A DNA stretch of 64,000 nt from a virus, in IMG/VR virus record IMGVR_UViG_3300030331_006276; one strand, written 5' to 3'. How positions within the stretch are numbered: the first letter of the stretch is position 1; each line of letters starts with the position of its first letter. Below, one piece after another: positions 42,682 through 50,178 of this stretch. Both the position numbers and the translations under genes were made by a program. Below the pieces are notes generated by a model. It did not search any database and was not told where the DNA came from. It saw only the letters and a program-made list of their open reading frames with translations.

Positions 42682-42709
42682 ATTATAAATATAAGTATAA
42701 TGGAATCAA
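42682..42709. promoter_or_regulatory. Overlapping divergent early (uvsY) and late (42700) promoters
   Basis: Minus strand TTGATT-N16-TATAAT 6 nt before GTG 42675; plus strand TATAAATA 42684-42691. Confidence 0.7.
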
Positions 42710-43089
42710 GTGGCAAATTTGAACGTATCTTTTTAAAAATGTTAAAAGAAGAGATGACTGCTGGTGCTGGAGGGGCGCTTGGTGGTGGTTCTTCGTATAA
42801 CCCGCCGGGTGATATAAGTTCTGGTGATACATACGCTCCAGGCGACGCTAGATTACCTAAGGCTCTTGGAGCTGTCCAAACGCGTAAAGGTACAGTAAAT
42901 AAAAAGAAGAAAAAGAAAGCAAAAGAAGAAAACGAAGAAAATTTTCCAGAAGAAGATGCAGAAAAGAAGAAGAAAGCTGATAGGTGTAAGCGTAGAGCTG
43001 ATTCTGTTTATGGTAAGAAAACTTCTGCTTACAAATCCGGGGCTATTGTAAGGTGTAGACAAGGAAAAATTTGGAAAAAGAAAAAATGA
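42700..43089 (+). CDS. Late modular basic protein
   Basis: KFERIFLKMLKEE N-terminus; EEDAE then ADRCKRRADSVYGKKTSAYKSGAIVRCR module. Confidence 0.65.
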   Translation: MESSGKFERIFLKMLKEEMTAGAGGALGGGSSYNPPGDISSGDTYAPGDARLPKALGAVQTRKGTVNKKKKKKAKEENEENFPEEDAEKKKKADRCKRRADSVYGKKTSAYKSGAIVRCRQGKIWKKKK

Positions 43090-43690
43090 CCCAGAAAGAG
43101 ATATTAGAAGCTAGCGACTCACTACGTCAATGGTTTAAACGTGGTGGTACTGATCCTAAAACTGGTAAAAAGTTTAAAGGGTGGGTAAATTGTAAGACTG
43201 GTGGTCCTTGTGGTCGTAAATCAAAAAAGTCTGGTGGTAGTTACCCGGCTTGTCGACCAACTAAAGCGGCTTGTAAAAGTATTAAGGGTAAAATGTATAA
43301 AAAGAAGGGTCCAAAGCGTGTTAATTGGAAGAAGAAAAAAACTAAAAGCGAGAATGCTGAAGAACCTAAAAAGGGTACCGGTAAAAAACCTAAAGGTTCA
43401 AGCAGAAGGTTGTATACTGATGAAAATCCAAAAGATACAGTAAGCGTAAAATATAGTACTGTGGGTGATATACGCGAAACGTTAAATAAAGCTTCATTTA
43501 AAAGTAAATCGCATGCCCGACAGTCGCAAATTATTAATTTAATTCATCAAAGAGTAAGAGCTGCTCGTGGTAGAGTAAAAGATCCTAAAAAGAAAAAAAG
43601 TTTAGCTGCCGCTTACAAATATATTACTAATAAAAAAGAAGCTAGTAAGCGTAAGACTAAACGAATGCGTGAAGAAGATGCAGAAAAGAA
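42949..43690 (+). repeat. 20-nt exact direct repeat at module junctions
   Basis: gaagaagatgcagaaaagaa at 42949-42968 and 43671-43690; partial copies at 44046 and 29627. Confidence 0.85.
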
Positions 43691-43841
43691 AAATGTTCAT
43701 AAACCTGTTAAGCCAGGTATACTTAAAAAGCGATTAGGTAATCTGTCTTGTAGTAAAGTAAGAGGTGCTAAAAGTAAGCTTAAGAATAAAGGTACTCATT
43801 ATGCTAAAGCATTACAACGCTATTTAAATTATCATTGTTAA
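43086..43841 (+). CDS. Late modular basic protein (three modules)
   Basis: ATGA-coupled start MTQKEILEA; SLRQWF..C..C..YPACRP module, RRLYTDENPKDT module, KPVKPGILKKRL module. Confidence 0.65.
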   Translation: MTQKEILEASDSLRQWFKRGGTDPKTGKKFKGWVNCKTGGPCGRKSKKSGGSYPACRPTKAACKSIKGKMYKKKGPKRVNWKKKKTKSENAEEPKKGTGKKPKGSSRRLYTDENPKDTVSVKYSTVGDIRETLNKASFKSKSHARQSQIINLIHQRVRAARGRVKDPKKKKSLAAAYKYITNKKEASKRKTKRMREEDAEKKNVHKPVKPGILKKRLGNLSCSKVRGAKSKLKNKGTHYAKALQRYLNYHC

Positions 43842-43853
43842 ATAAATATTAAT

Positions 43854-44324
43854 ATGAAGTCATTTAAATATTATTTTTTTGAAGCTAAAGAAGCTCCTAA
43901 AGGAAAACATTATGATTCAGCTGGTAGATTAAGATCTGGTGACGCTGATGCTGATGGTAGAGGAGGACCTAAGTATAGGTCTGATCCTACGTATAAAAAT
44001 CCTAATGAAAATAATGAAGATGATCTTGAAGATGAAGAAGCACCTGAAGAGGATGCAGAATATAGAGGAAGGAAAGTAAAACTTAACAAACCCATGAGAG
44101 GGGACGTTAAGAAGTTTAAAGTGTACGTTAAGGATCCTAAAACTGGTAATGTAAAGAAAGTAAATTTTGGTCATGGGGGTACTTCTGCTAAAAGAAAAGG
44201 TGAGAAGACTATGAAAATTCGTAAAAATAATCCAAAAGCTCGTAAATCGTTTAGAGCTAGACATAATTGTGATAACCCCGGGCCAAAGACTAAAGCCAGG
44301 TATTGGTCTTGTAGAAAGTGGTAG
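43854..44324 (+). CDS. Late basic protein, conserved marine T4-like family
   Basis: MKSFKYYFFEA start; YRGRKVKLNKP..KKFKVYVK..VNFG..ARKSFRARHNC..ARYWSCRKW. Confidence 0.7.
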   Translation: MKSFKYYFFEAKEAPKGKHYDSAGRLRSGDADADGRGGPKYRSDPTYKNPNENNEDDLEDEEAPEEDAEYRGRKVKLNKPMRGDVKKFKVYVKDPKTGNVKKVNFGHGGTSAKRKGEKTMKIRKNNPKARKSFRARHNCDNPGPKTKARYWSCRKW

Positions 44325-44716
44325 ATTTAGGTCATTGGGAGGGGATTCTAGAAGAAAGTACGGATCTACCTTACGGTTTCATTTATAAGATAACAAATCT
44401 TACTAATGATAAAAAGTATATTGGTAAAAAGCAGTGCCAGTCAATAAGAAAACGTCCACCCTTAAAGGGTAAAAAGAATAAACGTCATGAAAAAATAGAA
44501 ACTGACTGGAAGACCTATACTTCTTCATCAAATGAACTTAACCAACATATAGAAACACTTGGAAAGAATAATTTTAAGTTTGAAATCCTTAGGTGGTGTG
44601 ATTCAAAGTGGGAGTTGAGTTATCATGAAACTAGATTACAATTTGAAAAAGAAGTATTACTAAGAGATGACTACTACAACGGAATTATTAACGTCAGAAT
44701 TGGAAGGCGTAAATGA
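44318..44716 (+). CDS. GIY-YIG nuclease-domain protein
   Basis: GFIYKITN..KKYIGKK..W..Y..SS..F..EIL..E..YYN. Confidence 0.8.
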   Translation: MVDLGHWEGILEESTDLPYGFIYKITNLTNDKKYIGKKQCQSIRKRPPLKGKKNKRHEKIETDWKTYTSSSNELNQHIETLGKNNFKFEILRWCDSKWELSYHETRLQFEKEVLLRDDYYNGIINVRIGRRK

Positions 44717-45161
44717 TACGGTACGTGGTTTTGAGTTTATTAATCTTAATAAATGCTTAGCTAGATCTTTTAATGAATATCTATTGTATATAACTGAAAA
44801 CGAGCTTAAATTAACAAGAAAAGATAAAAACAAGCTTGGTATTCATTTTATTATTAAAGAAATAATTAAAGTTTGTAAGAATACTAATAGTAAAAAATGG
44901 TTTTATTATAAAACAAACGGTAAATCAATAGAACATACACTTGTTAAACGTATTTTTAACGCTATACCCACAAATATTACGTATAGTAAAGATAGCTTTG
45001 AAATATTTTTAGAAGAAAGAGACTACATGTCTTTCCAAAAAAAAGATACTTCAACTATTTCATTTTATAAATTTAGATTATTTCTTCGAAGGTATGAGTT
45101 GCAGCAAATAGAAAAGGAGTTTCTAACTAATATAAATATAAAACTCTCGTTGCTTCCATAA
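44667..45161 (+). CDS. Hypothetical protein
   Basis: 164 aa; start uncertain (50-nt overlap with the upstream gene). Confidence 0.5.
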   Translation: MTTTTELLTSELEGVNDTVRGFEFINLNKCLARSFNEYLLYITENELKLTRKDKNKLGIHFIIKEIIKVCKNTNSKKWFYYKTNGKSIEHTLVKRIFNAIPTNITYSKDSFEIFLEERDYMSFQKKDTSTISFYKFRLFLRRYELQQIEKEFLTNINIKLSLLP

Positions 45162-45169
45162 ATATATAC

Positions 45170-45583
45170 ATGAATAAGTTTCTTAAACTTGTAGAAGAGA
45201 ATCGACCAGGTCAAGACAAGTATACTATTGAGTTAAGAGATTCAAACGGCAAAGTTGTTGATTCTTTTGATATGTTTGGTGTAAGCAGTCCTTTCGATAT
45301 CTTTGATAGCTTTAAACGCGAGTATGCTCCAGATGGTTCAGTAGAAGATCAAGAAGTTGCTATGGGTAGTAATAAACCATATGATGTTGAAAAAGAGGTT
45401 AATAAGTTAGCAAATCAAGCTAAAGGTGGTGTAATGGGTAAGATTGCAGGGGCTATGGGAACAGCACCACAAGAAGCTAAAAAAGCAGTAAAAATGAGAG
45501 CAGACCTTGCAAAAAAAGCTGTAGATCTATATAACCAACAAACAGGTAAGTTATCTAATGCTATAGATGCCGCGAAAGGATAA
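45170..45583 (+). CDS. Late hypothetical protein
   Basis: MNKFLKLVEE start; TAAATA at 45159-45164. Confidence 0.6.
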   Translation: MNKFLKLVEENRPGQDKYTIELRDSNGKVVDSFDMFGVSSPFDIFDSFKREYAPDGSVEDQEVAMGSNKPYDVEKEVNKLANQAKGGVMGKIAGAMGTAPQEAKKAVKMRADLAKKAVDLYNQQTGKLSNAIDAAKG

Positions 45584-45588
45584 AAATC

Positions 45589-45927
45589 ATGAAAAAAACA
45601 ATACAATTATTTGAAAAATATAAAAAGCTCTATTCTGAACAAGAAGAAATAGATGTTAATGTTGATGTTGAAGCAGATGCTACTGATGTAGAAGATATTC
45701 CTCCGGAGCCAACTGGTATTTCACCAGAAGGGGAAGTATTTATTGCAGATTTACTAACTAATGCCTTTATATATGCTCCAAAAATGCAGGATATTAATAT
45801 TGCTGCACAGGTAAACAAACAATTTGGTAGAACGCAGCCTAGAAAAGTTATTGAAACAATTGAAAGATTAATCGAATTTTCAAACGAAGAGGTTGAACAA
45901 GAACTTGAAGACTTAGACGCACAATAA
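45589..45927 (+). CDS. Acidic hypothetical protein
   Basis: 112 aa; MKKTIQLFEKYKKLYSE start. Confidence 0.6.
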   Translation: MKKTIQLFEKYKKLYSEQEEIDVNVDVEADATDVEDIPPEPTGISPEGEVFIADLLTNAFIYAPKMQDINIAAQVNKQFGRTQPRKVIETIERLIEFSNEEVEQELEDLDAQ

Positions 45928-45928
45928 C

Positions 45929-47023
45929 ATGCAGTGGTCATTAGAAGATATCTATAAAAAGCAGGTACGTGGTAATATTCCACCACGCAGACACCTTCGT
46001 GTGCTAGGTGAAGAGGTAGATCTTTATACTAAGCAAAATGATGAATATTCATATGTTGGTCAAGTTTCAGATGAAAATTTTGATAAGATAAGTCGTATCG
46101 CAACAGGAGGAGATGCGTTAGCGTCAATTACCAAGTATTTAGAAGGTAAAAAATATACAAGAAACTCTTTTAAGAACGAATACGACTATGATAGTTTAGT
46201 TGATATGTTAGATAGAGGTGAATTTGAGAAATATATTAGCAGTGAAGAAAAACCGTCACTATCGATTAATGAAACGGGAAATGTTGTACAGTTAGTTACA
46301 AGTAAAGGGTTTAACGAAAAAACAGCAATGAGAACTTCTGCTTTTACTCCTATTGATGAAGGTGGTAGCAATGTTGGACCTTGCGAAATACTTCTCGCTT
46401 TAGCATTCAGCAACGTAACTAATTCAACCGAAGGGGGTGATTTAATGATAGATGGTGAAAAACTTGAAGTTAAAGGCCAAGGCGGTAGATTTGGTCAACA
46501 AGGCGGAAGAGGAGGACCAGCCTTATCTCCATCAACCCTTCTAAAAGGGTTAGAAGCAGATAATGTTAAGGTAGTTGAAAGTGTTGAATCAAATATTATT
46601 GGTGCGTATCGTGCTTTCGAGCAAATTGGAAAAATAGATCTATTTTTATCAAACTTACATGATTTACTTAAAATAGCATATCCGGGAGGTGATGTTGCAA
46701 AGTTTTTTACCAATGATATTAATTATATAGATCCAACATCAAGAAAAAGAGGGGCGCCACAAAGTCAAATTAGAAAACAATTAGCAAAGCTTAATCTACA
46801 GCAATATTCTACAAAGTATGATCTACAAAACATAATATTTGCAAAAGGACCACAACAAAAAAAGCCTACACCGGGTCGTTTAGGTGATTTTGCTTCATTT
46901 ACGGTTAATGACGCTATTAAGGAGGGTGGTTTAATTGATAGAGGTATTTTACGTGCAAATTCTTTTACAATGGCCGGTCTCTATCCAAACTTTTTCTATA
47001 TGTTTTCCAATGAATCTAAATAA
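45929..47023 (+). CDS. PD-(D/E)XK nuclease-like protein, putative
   Basis: GPCEILL..GGDLMIDGEKLEVKG fits an E...D...ExK catalytic pattern. Confidence 0.55.
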   Translation: MQWSLEDIYKKQVRGNIPPRRHLRVLGEEVDLYTKQNDEYSYVGQVSDENFDKISRIATGGDALASITKYLEGKKYTRNSFKNEYDYDSLVDMLDRGEFEKYISSEEKPSLSINETGNVVQLVTSKGFNEKTAMRTSAFTPIDEGGSNVGPCEILLALAFSNVTNSTEGGDLMIDGEKLEVKGQGGRFGQQGGRGGPALSPSTLLKGLEADNVKVVESVESNIIGAYRAFEQIGKIDLFLSNLHDLLKIAYPGGDVAKFFTNDINYIDPTSRKRGAPQSQIRKQLAKLNLQQYSTKYDLQNIIFAKGPQQKKPTPGRLGDFASFTVNDAIKEGGLIDRGILRANSFTMAGLYPNFFYMFSNESK

Positions 47024-47026
47024 ACT

Positions 47027-48238
47027 ATGAAGACTTTTAAGCTATATTTTGAACAATACGAGCTTCTAAATGAAGCTAAAGCTAATACACACCTTACACA
47101 TTTAGAGGAGCTTATTCTTACTAAAGGAGAGGGTGGATATAAGACTGCAAGGGGATTTATAACCGATTTGCTTTCACATTTACAGGGTAAGAGTAAAAGA
47201 AAAGTAAATACATCAGTCAAATGGGATGGTGCACCTGCTATTTTTGCTGGTAAGCATCCAGAAACTGGTAAATTCTTTGTAGGTACTAAATCTATATTCA
47301 ATAGAGAGCCTAAAATTAATTATACAGATAATGACGTTGAGATGAATCATGGTCATGCTCCTGGTTTAGCCGATAAATTAAAGAAAGCTCTTAAGTATCT
47401 TCCTAAGCTGGGTATTAAAGGTATACTTCAAGGTGATTTTATGTTTGATTCATCATCTGTTAACAGAGAGATTATTGATGGTGTGGAGCATTTTACATTT
47501 AAACCCAACACAATTAAGTATGCAGTTGAAAAAGATTCTAAATTGGGTAGAGAAATAGCTAATTCGGTATTTGGTATAGTATTTCATACAGGATATGCTG
47601 ATTTAGATAGCTCCCCACAATATGGTATTAATGTAAAAGGACTTAAAAAAGTTCCAGGAGTGTGGGTTGATGATGCTATATTTACTGATTCAACTGGAAC
47701 AGTTACTCTTACTACTGATGAGGCTAAGCAGGTGAGAGATTATGTAAAGACAGCAGATTCTATTAAAGTAGATTATCGAGATCTACCTCTAGACTTACTA
47801 AACATTTATGCTAACTCTGAAATTCAAAAAGGTCAGTTTTTAGAAGATCCTGAAGTTTCATTTAATAACTTTGTTGATTGGTTCAAAGGTAGAATGACTA
47901 AAGAAATAGAAAAGAGAAAGTCTAAAGCCGGTAAACTTAAGGTAGAAGAAAGCTTTAAAAAGAAAATGGCTGAATTTAATCAACAAAAAGATGATATAGT
48001 AAATATCTTTAAAGTAAGTAAGCTACTTTCTCAAGCCAAACAGATCTTTATTAACAAGTATAATAATGCTGTATATAATACTAAGCATTTCTTAGATGCA
48101 GAAGACGGTACGTTAAAGGTAACATCTCCGGAGGGTTATGTAAGCGTATCTAAAGCTGGTGATGCAGTTAAGTTAGTAGATAGATTAGAATTTAGCCGTG
48201 CTAATTTTAGTGGAGGTCAAACAAGTACAAAAAAATGA
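47027..48238 (+). CDS. Conserved T4-like phage protein (DUF6267-like) with ligase/capping-enzyme motifs
   Basis: SVKWDG (motif I), LQGDFMF (III), PEGYV (IV), VKLVDR (V); MKTFKLYFEQ start; TAAATA 4 nt upstream. Confidence 0.65.
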   Translation: MKTFKLYFEQYELLNEAKANTHLTHLEELILTKGEGGYKTARGFITDLLSHLQGKSKRKVNTSVKWDGAPAIFAGKHPETGKFFVGTKSIFNREPKINYTDNDVEMNHGHAPGLADKLKKALKYLPKLGIKGILQGDFMFDSSSVNREIIDGVEHFTFKPNTIKYAVEKDSKLGREIANSVFGIVFHTGYADLDSSPQYGINVKGLKKVPGVWVDDAIFTDSTGTVTLTTDEAKQVRDYVKTADSIKVDYRDLPLDLLNIYANSEIQKGQFLEDPEVSFNNFVDWFKGRMTKEIEKRKSKAGKLKVEESFKKKMAEFNQQKDDIVNIFKVSKLLSQAKQIFINKYNNAVYNTKHFLDAEDGTLKVTSPEGYVSVSKAGDAVKLVDRLEFSRANFSGGQTSTKK

Positions 48239-48738
48239 AAACATTTAGAGAATATTTTGAAGAAAACAAAGCGATAGATTCCTTAAGAGGATGGGAGCAT
48301 GATGATGCTAGAGATTACGCAATAAAACTTATAAAGAAATTCGGTGAACCAGATGAAGTAACTGAAAATATGTTACTTTGGAATAATATTGAACCGCCTT
48401 TTGAATCAGTTTATATAAAAGATGAAAGTATACCTCATGAGTTTCCTTCCTCCCATAGAGATTATGTTTATTCTACTATGAATATTGATGTACCTGCTGA
48501 AATGTTAGATACATTAGGATATGTTACTGGTAGTATTATATACGACGGTCTTAAAAAAGAAGTTACTGCAAGATGTGGTGACTTATATGCTAATGCAGCT
48601 ACATTAGGTTTTGTAAAAGATATGGTTGATGGTAAGGTTACTACAGATTTTGAAGAGGCAAAAAAAGAATATGCTAATAGAATACAAAAGGCACCTTTAC
48701 CTGATTGGTATCCTAACAGTATGGAAGAAGGAGATTAA
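48235..48738 (+). CDS. Hypothetical protein
   Basis: MKTFREYFEE start; FGEPDEVT..HEFP..H.D..GSI..D..EVTARC..N motif set. Confidence 0.6.
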   Translation: MKTFREYFEENKAIDSLRGWEHDDARDYAIKLIKKFGEPDEVTENMLLWNNIEPPFESVYIKDESIPHEFPSSHRDYVYSTMNIDVPAEMLDTLGYVTGSIIYDGLKKEVTARCGDLYANAATLGFVKDMVDGKVTTDFEEAKKEYANRIQKAPLPDWYPNSMEEGD

Positions 48739-48740
48739 AA

Positions 48741-49280
48741 ATGAGAACCTTTAGAGAATATTTTGAAGATATGGAGACAAGAGTTGAGCGAATCGCTCTT
48801 CTCCCCGGTGGTTTTAAGCCACCTACAAAGGGTCACTTTAATGCTTTAAGATATTTGCTTGATGATGCAGATAAAGGTATTGTTTTTATTGGTGGGAAGG
48901 CACGTGAAGGCATTACACCTGAGCAATCAGAAAAGATATGGAACATATATGCGAAATATTTTGATAAGCCTGTAAAGGTTGTGTATGTACCGAATCCGGT
49001 AAGGGCAGTTTATGACTTTGCTGATGAAAATTTAGACACGACGTTGCTTGTTGGTGCTGGTGAAAAGGATGAAGATGTTAAACGTTACAAATATTTTATA
49101 GATAATGTGGAAAAATATCCATATGTTAATGTAGTTAAAATACCAATGCAAGAAGGTGGTATATCTGGTAGTCAAACAAGAGAAATGATACAAAAAAATA
49201 TAGATGAGTCGTTGGATTATTTTGTACCAGATGAAATATCTATTGAAGATAGAGATCAAATAAAAGCAATATTAGTATAA
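48741..49280 (+). CDS. HIGH-superfamily nucleotidyltransferase (cytidyltransferase-like)
   Basis: PGGFKPPTKGH (HIGH variant), GAGEKD..RY, GISGSQTR; MRTFREYFED start. Confidence 0.8.
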   Translation: MRTFREYFEDMETRVERIALLPGGFKPPTKGHFNALRYLLDDADKGIVFIGGKAREGITPEQSEKIWNIYAKYFDKPVKVVYVPNPVRAVYDFADENLDTTLLVGAGEKDEDVKRYKYFIDNVEKYPYVNVVKIPMQEGGISGSQTREMIQKNIDESLDYFVPDEISIEDRDQIKAILV

Positions 49281-49288
49281 ATAATATT

Positions 49289-49705
49289 ATGAGAGATAAG
49301 AAACGTAAAGAAAGAGCTATGCTTCAGGAAGCATATCAAAAGGTTAACGAAATGTTAGGACCGCATAATAACCCTTATCCTCAAAAAATGGCAGTAGCTG
49401 TTCCTGTACCATCAGAAGATGAAAGCTGTGGAGAGTATGATCAATCTGAAATTGATATGGCAGGTAGGGATCTTCTTAAAGCGCAAGAATATGCTACAAA
49501 ATTAAGTATGATGGTGCCAAAGTTACCTGGTTTGGATGGATGGGTAGCTTCAAAAATTACAAAAGCTGCAGATTATCTCTCATCTGTATTTCATTATCTT
49601 GATTATGAAATGCAACAACATGATGAAGTTGTAGTGGATGTTGAAGAAATACAAGCACCAGTAGAAGTTTTTAATGTAGGGTATGAGGATACAGAAAATA
49701 CTTGA
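49289..49705 (+). CDS. Late hypothetical protein
   Basis: LDGWVASKITKAADYLSSV; TATAAATA at 49276-49283. Confidence 0.6.
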   Translation: MRDKKRKERAMLQEAYQKVNEMLGPHNNPYPQKMAVAVPVPSEDESCGEYDQSEIDMAGRDLLKAQEYATKLSMMVPKLPGLDGWVASKITKAADYLSSVFHYLDYEMQQHDEVVVDVEEIQAPVEVFNVGYEDTENT

Positions 49706-49728
49706 CCACACCGTTAATAGCAGTTGCT

Positions 49729-50178
49729 ATGAAGAAGTTTAAACATTTTTTTATTGAAAAACAAGTTCTTGGACTTATAGAGTTCTTTGACGTAGATGGT
49801 GTTGGTAAAATACCATCTAAACTTGATTCAGGTAACGGTGCTTTTAACGTTATTCATGGAGAGGATATACAAATACAAGGTAATAAAGTTCTCTTTAAAA
49901 CAGTTAACAATAAACATCTTATAAAAGATAAAGTAGATGATATTTCTATTAATGTCGGAGCTGGTAATATAGAAGAAAGACCTGTTGTTAACTTTGATCT
50001 GAAAATTGGTAATAAAGAGTTTAAAGATATACCTTTTTCTGTAGGTAATAGAACTAGTAACTTATTTAAAATATTAGTAAGTAAAGACTTTATAGAAAAA
50101 GAGCTTGATGCTCTTATTGATGTTAGTCGAGAAAATATTGCTGATAAAGAGCTTGATGCTACTTTTAATACCAAGTAG
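49729..50178 (+). CDS. Retropepsin-like (RimK-associated 'ATP-dependent Zn protease'-type) protease
   Basis: SKLDSGNG, ERPVV..L.IG, FSVGNR..ILVSK; start moved to ATG 49729 (MKKFKHFFIE). Confidence 0.7.
   Translation: MKKFKHFFIEKQVLGLIEFFDVDGVGKIPSKLDSGNGAFNVIHGEDIQIQGNKVLFKTVNNKHLIKDKVDDISINVGAGNIEERPVVNFDLKIGNKEFKDIPFSVGNRTSNLFKILVSKDFIEKELDALIDVSRENIADKELDATFNTK

Follow-up and report, generated by a model that had tools for sequence, protein, structure and literature searches.

The stretch of DNA analyzed here, a 64,000-nucleotide window from IMG/VR virus record IMGVR_UViG_3300030331_006276, is part of the genome of an uncultured T4-like marine myovirus and contains tail-fibre genes, a minus-strand replication block with UvsW and UvsY, genes for 7-deazaguanine synthesis, and a glycosyltransferase operon. 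Between positions 42,700 and 50,178 lies a cassette of putatively late genes, five of which, all neighbours in the genome, open with one short N-terminal peptide, M-K/R-x-F-K/R-x-Y/F-F followed by Glu at position 9 or 10 (hereafter, the tag; Table 1). The bodies behind the tag are unrelated to one another: an RNA-ligase-like DUF6267 protein, a HIGH nucleotidyltransferase, a weakly retropepsin-like protein, an Hva1-like basic protein, and one protein of unmatched fold. The nearest isolated relative, recognized through the DUF6267 protein (38% identity), is Pelagibacter phage HTVC008M (Kyanoviridae), followed by T4-like cyanophages; megablast comparison of 24 kb of the window with isolated phages gave no DNA-level match, and an exact 45-nt search of IMG/VR also gave none. 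Because the window holds no head genes and has no match among the isolates, a syntenic IMG/VR contig of 170,908 bp (G001), with a DNA identity of 79–87%, was used as a stand-in for the rest of the phage genome, including the head genes.

Table 1 Tagged proteins and associated features of the cassette.
Feature	Position	Strand	Description
Tagged protein 1, 156 aa	43854..44324	+	Tag (residues 1–10), acidic/Gly-rich linker, basic C-terminal Hva1-like domain (~70–156); pI 9.9; phrog_7595
Tagged protein 2, 403 aa	47027..48238	+	Tag, then DUF6267 body, suggestive likeness to RNA ligases; PF19782 E 2.9e-96, domain from residue 20
Tagged protein 3, 167 aa	48235..48738	+	Tag, then conserved domain, function unassigned; 65 homologues
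Tagged protein 4, 179 aa	48741..49280	+	Tag, then HIGH nucleotidyltransferase (PPAT/NMNAT-like)
Tagged protein 5, 149 aa	49729..50178	+	Tag, then body with weak retropepsin-like/PF05618 match
Two untagged very basic proteins	42700..43841	+	pI 9.9 and 10.5; Lys + Arg 26–30%; head of cassette
Late-promoter-like box TATAAATA	42684..42691	+	9 nt before first cassette gene (42700)
Late-promoter-like box AATAAATA	43841..43848	+	6 nt before tagged gene 43854
Two late-promoter-like boxes, TATAAATA at 45131 and CATAAATA at 45157	45131..45164	+	Before 45170
Late-promoter-like box TATAAATA	49276..49283	+	6 nt before 49289, upstream of tagged gene 49729

When the strict form of the tag, M[KR].F[KR].[YF]F, was searched for in all six frames, the window gave five matches, each at an ORF (open reading frame) start, against a chance expectation of 0.015, and the 171-kb contig G001 gave four, all at the starts of orthologous ORFs, against 0.032. 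With the initial Met omitted from the pattern, nine of nine matches lay at protein starts and none was internal. All five tags of the window have Phe4, Tyr/Phe7, and Phe8; three carry the Glu residue at position 10, the other two at position 9. Scored with a position matrix derived from these five sequences, the tags reached 25–30 bits and the best of 800 internal Met positions 5.4 bits, and the tagged proteins were cleanly separated from all other proteins. In an all-against-all comparison of the N-termini encoded by G001, the tag family formed the main cluster of unrelated proteins. The preliminary description of this DNA, which had located the peptide at 43854, 47027, 48235, 48741, and 49729, is thus borne out, and the pattern is exclusive to ORF starts. 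The gene start at 49729, an ATG within an ORF listed from a TTG at 49702, is taken as real because about 115 of 117 unique homologues begin at that Met.

The same description had added six looser members of the family, at 45170, 42700, 19143, 28757, 43086, and 51498, and these proved indistinguishable from background by both the position matrix and the N-terminal comparison. The candidates at 45170, 19143, and 43071/43086 gave matrix scores from −1.7 to below −10 (99th percentile of the null, −2.2), those at 42700, 28757, and 51498 fell outside the 22 best matrix scores, and the weak mutual likeness of the pairs 42700/19143 and 43086/51498 had a score of 29, the same as that of interior-segment controls. 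They are dropped here, since their scores lie inside the null distribution. Sites of the form L/I/F-x-E near the N-termini of other cassette proteins were also considered and were discounted as too frequent by chance.

Within the tags, codons differ synonymously both inside the window and between relatives, and selection acts on the tag peptide, not on the DNA. The tag is retained across hundreds of metagenomic homologues. Among the matches listed for the nucleotidyltransferase at 48741, 120 of the 120 with at least 60% identity keep it, Met1, Phe4, Glu6, Glu9, and Glu12 being invariant in the family and positions 2, 5, 10, and 11 variable; in the family of the retropepsin-like protein at 49729 (n = 117), Phe7 is invariant, Phe4, Phe8, and Glu10 are fixed in 114–115 of the 117, and position 9 is occupied by six different residues. 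Such fixed anchors around a free middle position form the pattern that would be expected of a hydrophobic-x-Glu protease site. In relatives, the tag is found on at least eight different bodies, it also heads proteins in a more distant relative (L019), and a degenerate DNA pattern (ATG plus tag) gave 34 matches in IMG/VR, all 34 of which head intact ORFs, from at least five families.

The conservation just described bears on the explanation that the motif has no sorting role: it could serve translation initiation at the mRNA level, through an AT-rich 5′ coding region, or be an ordinary N-terminal helix shared through a recent duplication of 5′ gene ends. It is true that the tag codons are AT-rich, that the genes are tightly coupled with promoter-like boxes 1–9 nt from the starts, and that the tag has helical propensity in AlphaFold2 models. 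However, synonymous positions differ between tags and between orthologues, with residues 4, 7, 8, and 9/10 remaining fixed, other highly expressed late genes of the window do not carry the motif, and the tag is still present where the bodies are only about 50% identical, other lineages having it in an altered, position-equivalent form. We regard an origin of this kind as highly improbable.

The positions that are fixed in the tag are those that matter in the capsid-targeting sequence (CTS) of phage T4. The T4 ipII and ipIII proteins begin with MKTYQEFIAE, according to both the T4 record and the literature (PMC8442874); targeting depends on residues 4 and 7 of this sequence, and processing by the gp21 protease, which cuts after L/I-x-E, depends on residues 8 and 10 and is blocked by Asp at position 10 (PMC9026906). 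The fixed residues 4, 7, 8, and 9/10 of the tag coincide with the targeting and processing positions, and the general layout is also shared: a peptide of about ten residues that opens unrelated, putatively late proteins, with Met-Lys-Thr first, aromatic residues at 4 and 7, a hydrophobic one at 8, and Glu at 10. The closest approach to the T4 sequence is found in a metagenomic protein (P0141), 57% identical to the protein at 48235, whose first ten residues agree with the T4 CTS at nine and for which no relatives were found in IMG/VR; in the leaders of other lineages of the 48235 family, positions 4, 7, and 8 are hydrophobic and Glu occupies position 9 or 10. Conversely, a loose regular expression of the tag, applied to 57 kb of T4, found only ipII and ipIII. 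The tags of the window differ from the T4 CTS in having Phe at positions 4 and 8, instead of Tyr and Ile, and in two cases Glu at 9, not 10; the cargo, as far as it is known from sequence, is also different, being mostly enzyme-like and of 150–400 aa, unlike the small basic DNA-associated internal proteins of T4, and the host of the window phage is marine, that of T4 enterobacterial.

The processing machinery expected of a T4-type system is present in the lineage. G001 encodes a Peptidase_S77 (gp21-type) prohead protease (109.6 bits, above the Pfam cut-off), flanked by portal-, scaffold-, and major-capsid-like genes that were assigned by position and N-terminal likeness to T4. As in T4, therefore, the tags occur in a lineage with a gp21-type protease and a scaffolding core, and, again as in T4, the locus varies between relatives.

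The bodies that follow the tag were compared with known families and folds. In the DUF6267 protein, Lys65, Asp67, and Gly68 are invariant in the alignment and form K-x-D-G, that is, ligase motif I with its catalytic lysine. The best long alignments of its AlphaFold2 model in VIA-align are all to RNA ligases, at Z 6.0–7.4: 5cot (Z 7.4; root-mean-square deviation, 4.0; 173 aligned residues), Trl1 (Z 7.3 and 7.0), T4 Rnl2 (6.5), and T4 Rnl1 (6.3). All of these values are below the safe threshold of Z 8, and Foldseek gave no match of the model in the PDB, so that the ligase fold proposed for this protein in the preliminary description is moderately supported and the likeness to RNA ligases suggestive. 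The protein at 48741 has no Pfam match, and its family alignment conserves P-P-T-K-G-H and I-S-G-(S/T)-x-x-R, corresponding to an H-x-G-H-type motif and the C-terminal I-S-x-x-x-x-R of HIGH nucleotidyltransferases; its similarity to PPAT entries of the PDB is at E 0.03–0.2, its family is aligned by hhalign to the nucleotidyltransferases of cyanophage S-SCSM1 (ORF91) and HTVC008M, and the HTVC008M homologue scores 20.4 bits against PF01467, for which the cut-off is 21. The retropepsin-like label given to the protein at 49729, which would make it an aspartic protease, is weakly supported, PF05618 scoring 23.1 bits under a cut-off of 27 and PDB entry 9g58 having E 0.012. The family of the protein at 48235 has the invariant motifs D-E-S-I/V-P-H, H-R-D-x-V-Y, and A-R-C-G, and its model gave no Foldseek match in the PDB; a likeness to type III secretion chaperones or the YbjN-like fold was rejected, as the VIA-align Z of only about 5 is within noise. 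The C-terminal domain of the protein at 43854 occurs as a stand-alone small protein in many marine phages, one of which is annotated as HVA1 family. In a paralogue of the 43854 protein encoded by G001, another leader takes the place of the tag, with the junction again at Glu-Ala.

The modular relation between tag and body is also evident in the models and homologues. In AlphaFold2, the predicted local distance difference test (pLDDT) score of the 48235 protein is 91.5 overall and 50 for residues 1–10, and that of the DUF6267 protein is 79.3 overall and below 50 for residues 1–21. The alignments of PDB PPAT and NMNAT structures begin at profile positions 14–22, past the tag. Several homologues of the 48235 protein are without the tag, the DUF6267 homologues of S-PM2 and S-SZBM1 begin directly at the domain, and that of HTVC008M has only a short, unrelated leader. 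Lying outside the confidently modeled fold, absent from some homologues, and passed over by the structural relatives, the tag is predicted to be dispensable for folding of the cargo. In one variant of the nucleotidyltransferase, a 41-residue Lys-rich insert separates the tag from the enzyme, and the tag stays at the extreme N-terminus.

In some phages, the DUF6267 and nucleotidyltransferase proteins are fused, as in three metagenomic proteins of 624–652 aa (P0306, P0322, and P0327), and the two therefore probably act together. The fusion junction keeps a tag-like stretch, and the notion that the tag is needed once per polypeptide is not borne out by these fusions, in which the stretch persists at an internal position. 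The fusions, together with the fact that the tagged genes are all neighbours, could be taken to mean that the tag is a recognition or docking signal for a partner outside the capsid, such as a modifying enzyme, a multi-enzyme complex of the cassette proteins, or a host protease or chaperone. Yet the tag matches the T4 CTS at functionally mapped residues, P0141 in nine out of ten, tagged homologues are found in virions (see below), and in the loci examined no candidate partner gene travels with the tag. A non-capsid docking function is thus considered quite unlikely.

Indirect information on the location of such enzymes comes from the virion proteomics of T4-like cyanophages. An NMNAT-like protein of S-SCSM1 (ORF91; PMC9602691) and a cytidylyltransferase of S-SZBM1 (S-SZBM1_140; PMC9146016) were detected in CsCl-purified virions, and an NMNAT/cytidylyltransferase-like protein of S-CREM2 (ORF154; PMC10665884) was reported in virions purified in the same way. 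These virion nucleotidyltransferases resemble the window protein in belonging to the same HIGH family, with the motif G-x-F-x-P-P-T/H-x-G-H, and in being encoded in a neighbourhood after replication genes, which for S-SCSM1 and S-SZBM1 is equivalent, following the primase-helicase gene. A tag-like peptide with Glu-Ala as its last two residues stands at the start of both ORF91 and S-SZBM1_140. Compared with the window protein, these two proteins are longer, and the similarity is remote: the nucleotidyltransferase domain of ORF91 is matched to the profile of the window family by hhalign with a probability of 81% (E 1e-5), and a phmmer search of the cassette proteins against the S-SCSM1 cluster gave no match, profile comparison alone linking the nucleotidyltransferases. 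In the first 148 of 229 kb of S-SCSM1, the part that was scanned, tag-like starts occur on ORF30, ORF31, and ORF91, and ORF31 and ORF91 are annotated as virion proteins. An untagged DUF6267 protein of S-SZBM1, encoded adjacent to S-SZBM1_140, is absent from the virion proteins named in the accessible part of that paper (PMC9146016). The accessible parts of the S-SCSM1, S-SZBM1, and S-CREM2 papers offer no packaging signal for the nucleotidyltransferases (PMC9602691, PMC9146016, PMC10665884), and our literature search found no paper linking these enzymes to a capsid-targeting sequence.

The presence in mature particles is of importance for a further explanation, in which the tag would direct the proteins into the prohead as assembly-time or core components, to be degraded or expelled later like scaffold and not to be injected. 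Precedent for such a fate is provided by most T4 core proteins (gp22, gp67, and gp68), which are cut up and leave the head (PMC8442874, PMC9026906), and it would also suit both the occurrence of a possible protease among the tagged proteins and the basic module with an acidic boundary that sits between tag and enzyme in the nucleotidyltransferase variant mentioned above. However, the remote nucleotidyltransferase homologues were found in mature CsCl-purified virions, the tagged bodies have the appearance of folded enzymes in which a single obvious cleavage site is seen, near the N-terminus, and T4 proteins with such a tag are retained in the head (PMC8442874). We consider loss from the head during assembly unlikely. 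Each of the three rivals (no retention, another docking partner, no sorting role) explains only part of the data.

The most probable interpretation, to which we assign a probability of roughly 70%, is that the decapeptide M-K/R-x-F-K/R-x-Y/F-F-x-E is a T4-type CTS that would direct the proteins to the prohead core and be cut off after its Glu, the proteins remaining in the head. By analogy to T4, the five proteins would be made late, and the N-terminal tag would let them bind the scaffolding core while the prohead assembles; the gp21-type serine protease would then cut after Glu9 or Glu10, at an aromatic-x-Glu site that is the presumed counterpart of Leu/Ile-x-Glu in T4, and the mature proteins would remain packaged alongside the DNA and accompany it into the cell. 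We infer the steps of core binding, cleavage, retention, ejection, and action of the cargo in the host from the likeness to T4. The capsid-targeting proposal of the preliminary description thereby holds in its central part, through the exclusivity of the tag to ORF starts, its conservation at the T4 positions, its location outside the folds, the gp21-type protease in G001, and the tagged remote homologues in virions, and is narrowed by the loss of the six looser members.

Several observations count against this interpretation. In two of the five tags, Glu9 is followed by Asp or Gln at position 10, and the cut site in such Glu9 tags is uncertain because Asp at 10 blocks processing in T4. HTVC008M, the closest isolate, has only degenerate versions of the tag. 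Most lineages of the nucleotidyltransferase family have an amphipathic leader of varying sequence ahead of the fold, and since a leader is thus nearly general and is kept at the fusion junctions, that of the nucleotidyltransferase could belong partly to the enzyme. The head genes and the protease are located in G001, outside the window. Finally, the authors of the S-CREM2 study warn that virion preparations may contain non-structural proteins carried along because of their abundance (PMC10665884).

The packaging of enzymes in phage heads has parallels with which the proposed T4-type targeting is worth comparing. T4 Alt is an enzyme in a T4-type head that is processed by gp21 near its N-terminus (and its C-terminus) and acts on the host at the start of infection (PMC9026906), as the window proteins might do by analogy; unlike them, Alt has a leader that is not an internal-protein-type CTS, and no cassette protein is an ADP-ribosyltransferase. 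In giant phages (phiKZ, 201phi2-1, and SPN3US), many head proteins, including enzymes, carry propeptides that are removed after Glu by a gp21-related protease (PMC9026906). In contrast to the short, shared, T4-like tag of the window phage, whose genome is of about 170–185 kb, those propeptides are long, have no common decapeptide, and are cut at the motif S/A-x-E.

If the enzymes are indeed in the capsid, this would explain the repeated finding of NMNAT- and cytidylyltransferase-like proteins in purified cyanophage particles and would bear on the question of whether they are cargo or contaminants, the conserved T4-type address tag on these enzymes and their neighbours offering a concrete, testable packaging mechanism. 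The T4 tag would then have changed hardly at all between branches of the T4 superfamily that lie very far apart, the cargo having shifted from small basic proteins to enzymes. The mechanism itself is already known from T4, and the apparent novelty lies in the kind of cargo, in the marine lineage, and in the connection to virion proteomics data that had lacked an explanation. Uncultured marine myoviruses are among the most abundant viruses of the ocean, and, should the T4-type reading be true, the tag would serve as a sequence rule, or key, for predicting their capsid-borne, injected proteins.

As to the function of the cargo, we tentatively propose that the phage preloads a set of enzymes (RNA-ligase-like, NMNAT-like, and partners) by means of the T4-type tag, so that nucleic-acid repair or an NAD-related counter-defence would be in place before phage gene expression; this is possible and, in our estimation, rather doubtful. 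The action before phage transcription and the anti-defence role, both suggested in the preliminary description, are inferred, and the idea of preloaded RNA- or NAD-related repair as a counter-defence is appealing but speculative.

The remaining features of the cassette concern its expression and its head. Boxes of the type NATAAATA lie 1–9 nt upstream of 42700, 43854, 45170, and 49289, and similar boxes precede the tail-fibre genes. The tagged genes without a box of their own are start/stop-coupled downstream of boxed genes, and the two boxes at 45131 and 45157 are likely promoters of the run 45170–49280, which holds three of the tagged genes. The case for late expression of the cassette consists of the NATAAATA boxes, which in combination with the start/stop coupling make it plausible. 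Throughout the window, NATAAATA boxes at 2029, 6452, 9314, 13859, 28743, 42684, 43841, 45157, and 49276 end 1–9 nt before start codons, a gap that, if the boxes are late promoters, leaves almost no room for a leader or a Shine–Dalgarno sequence.

The first three proteins of the cassette are very basic (pI 9.9–10.5), as T4 internal proteins are (PMC8442874), and the position matrix finds no canonical tag on the two that are encoded at 42700..43841. Residues 33–56 of the protein encoded at 42700–43089 resemble the N-arm of the G001 major capsid protein gp23 (residues 77–106; BLASTP E 2e-5) and are followed by a Lys-rich tail, so that this protein may mimic a segment of the capsid protein. Lys-rich modules bounded by E-D/N-A-E occur in the window at 42946, 43347, 43668, and 44043, as well as in metagenomic protein P0055 and at position 5000 of L005 (L005:5000), and E-D/N-A-E also ends the 41-residue basic insert of the nucleotidyltransferase variant. 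These boundaries could be internal processing sites, with a motif that does not fit L/I-x-E.

A second recurrent N-terminal motif, L-L/M-x-E-A-Y-x-x-I/V, is found in the window at 49289–49705, in G001 at 167166–167819, 167819–168196, and 169419–169772, and at L031:36358-37329, as well as in S-SCSM1 ORF89, an annotated virion protein, and may represent a second type of leader. In an unrelated large myovirus of 100–120 kb, Flavobacterium phage immuto (L030), several proteins carry recurrent N-terminal peptides of their own, which fall into two families, one opening with M-K-K-S-Q-L and one containing F-x-L-K-K-F-L-x-E-N-K-L-T; lineage-specific address tags may thus be common. Lastly, the cassette also includes, at 44318–44716, a SegE-type GIY-YIG homing endonuclease gene (PF19835, E 3e-33) beside uvsW and uvsY, the same neighbourhood as that of segE in T4.

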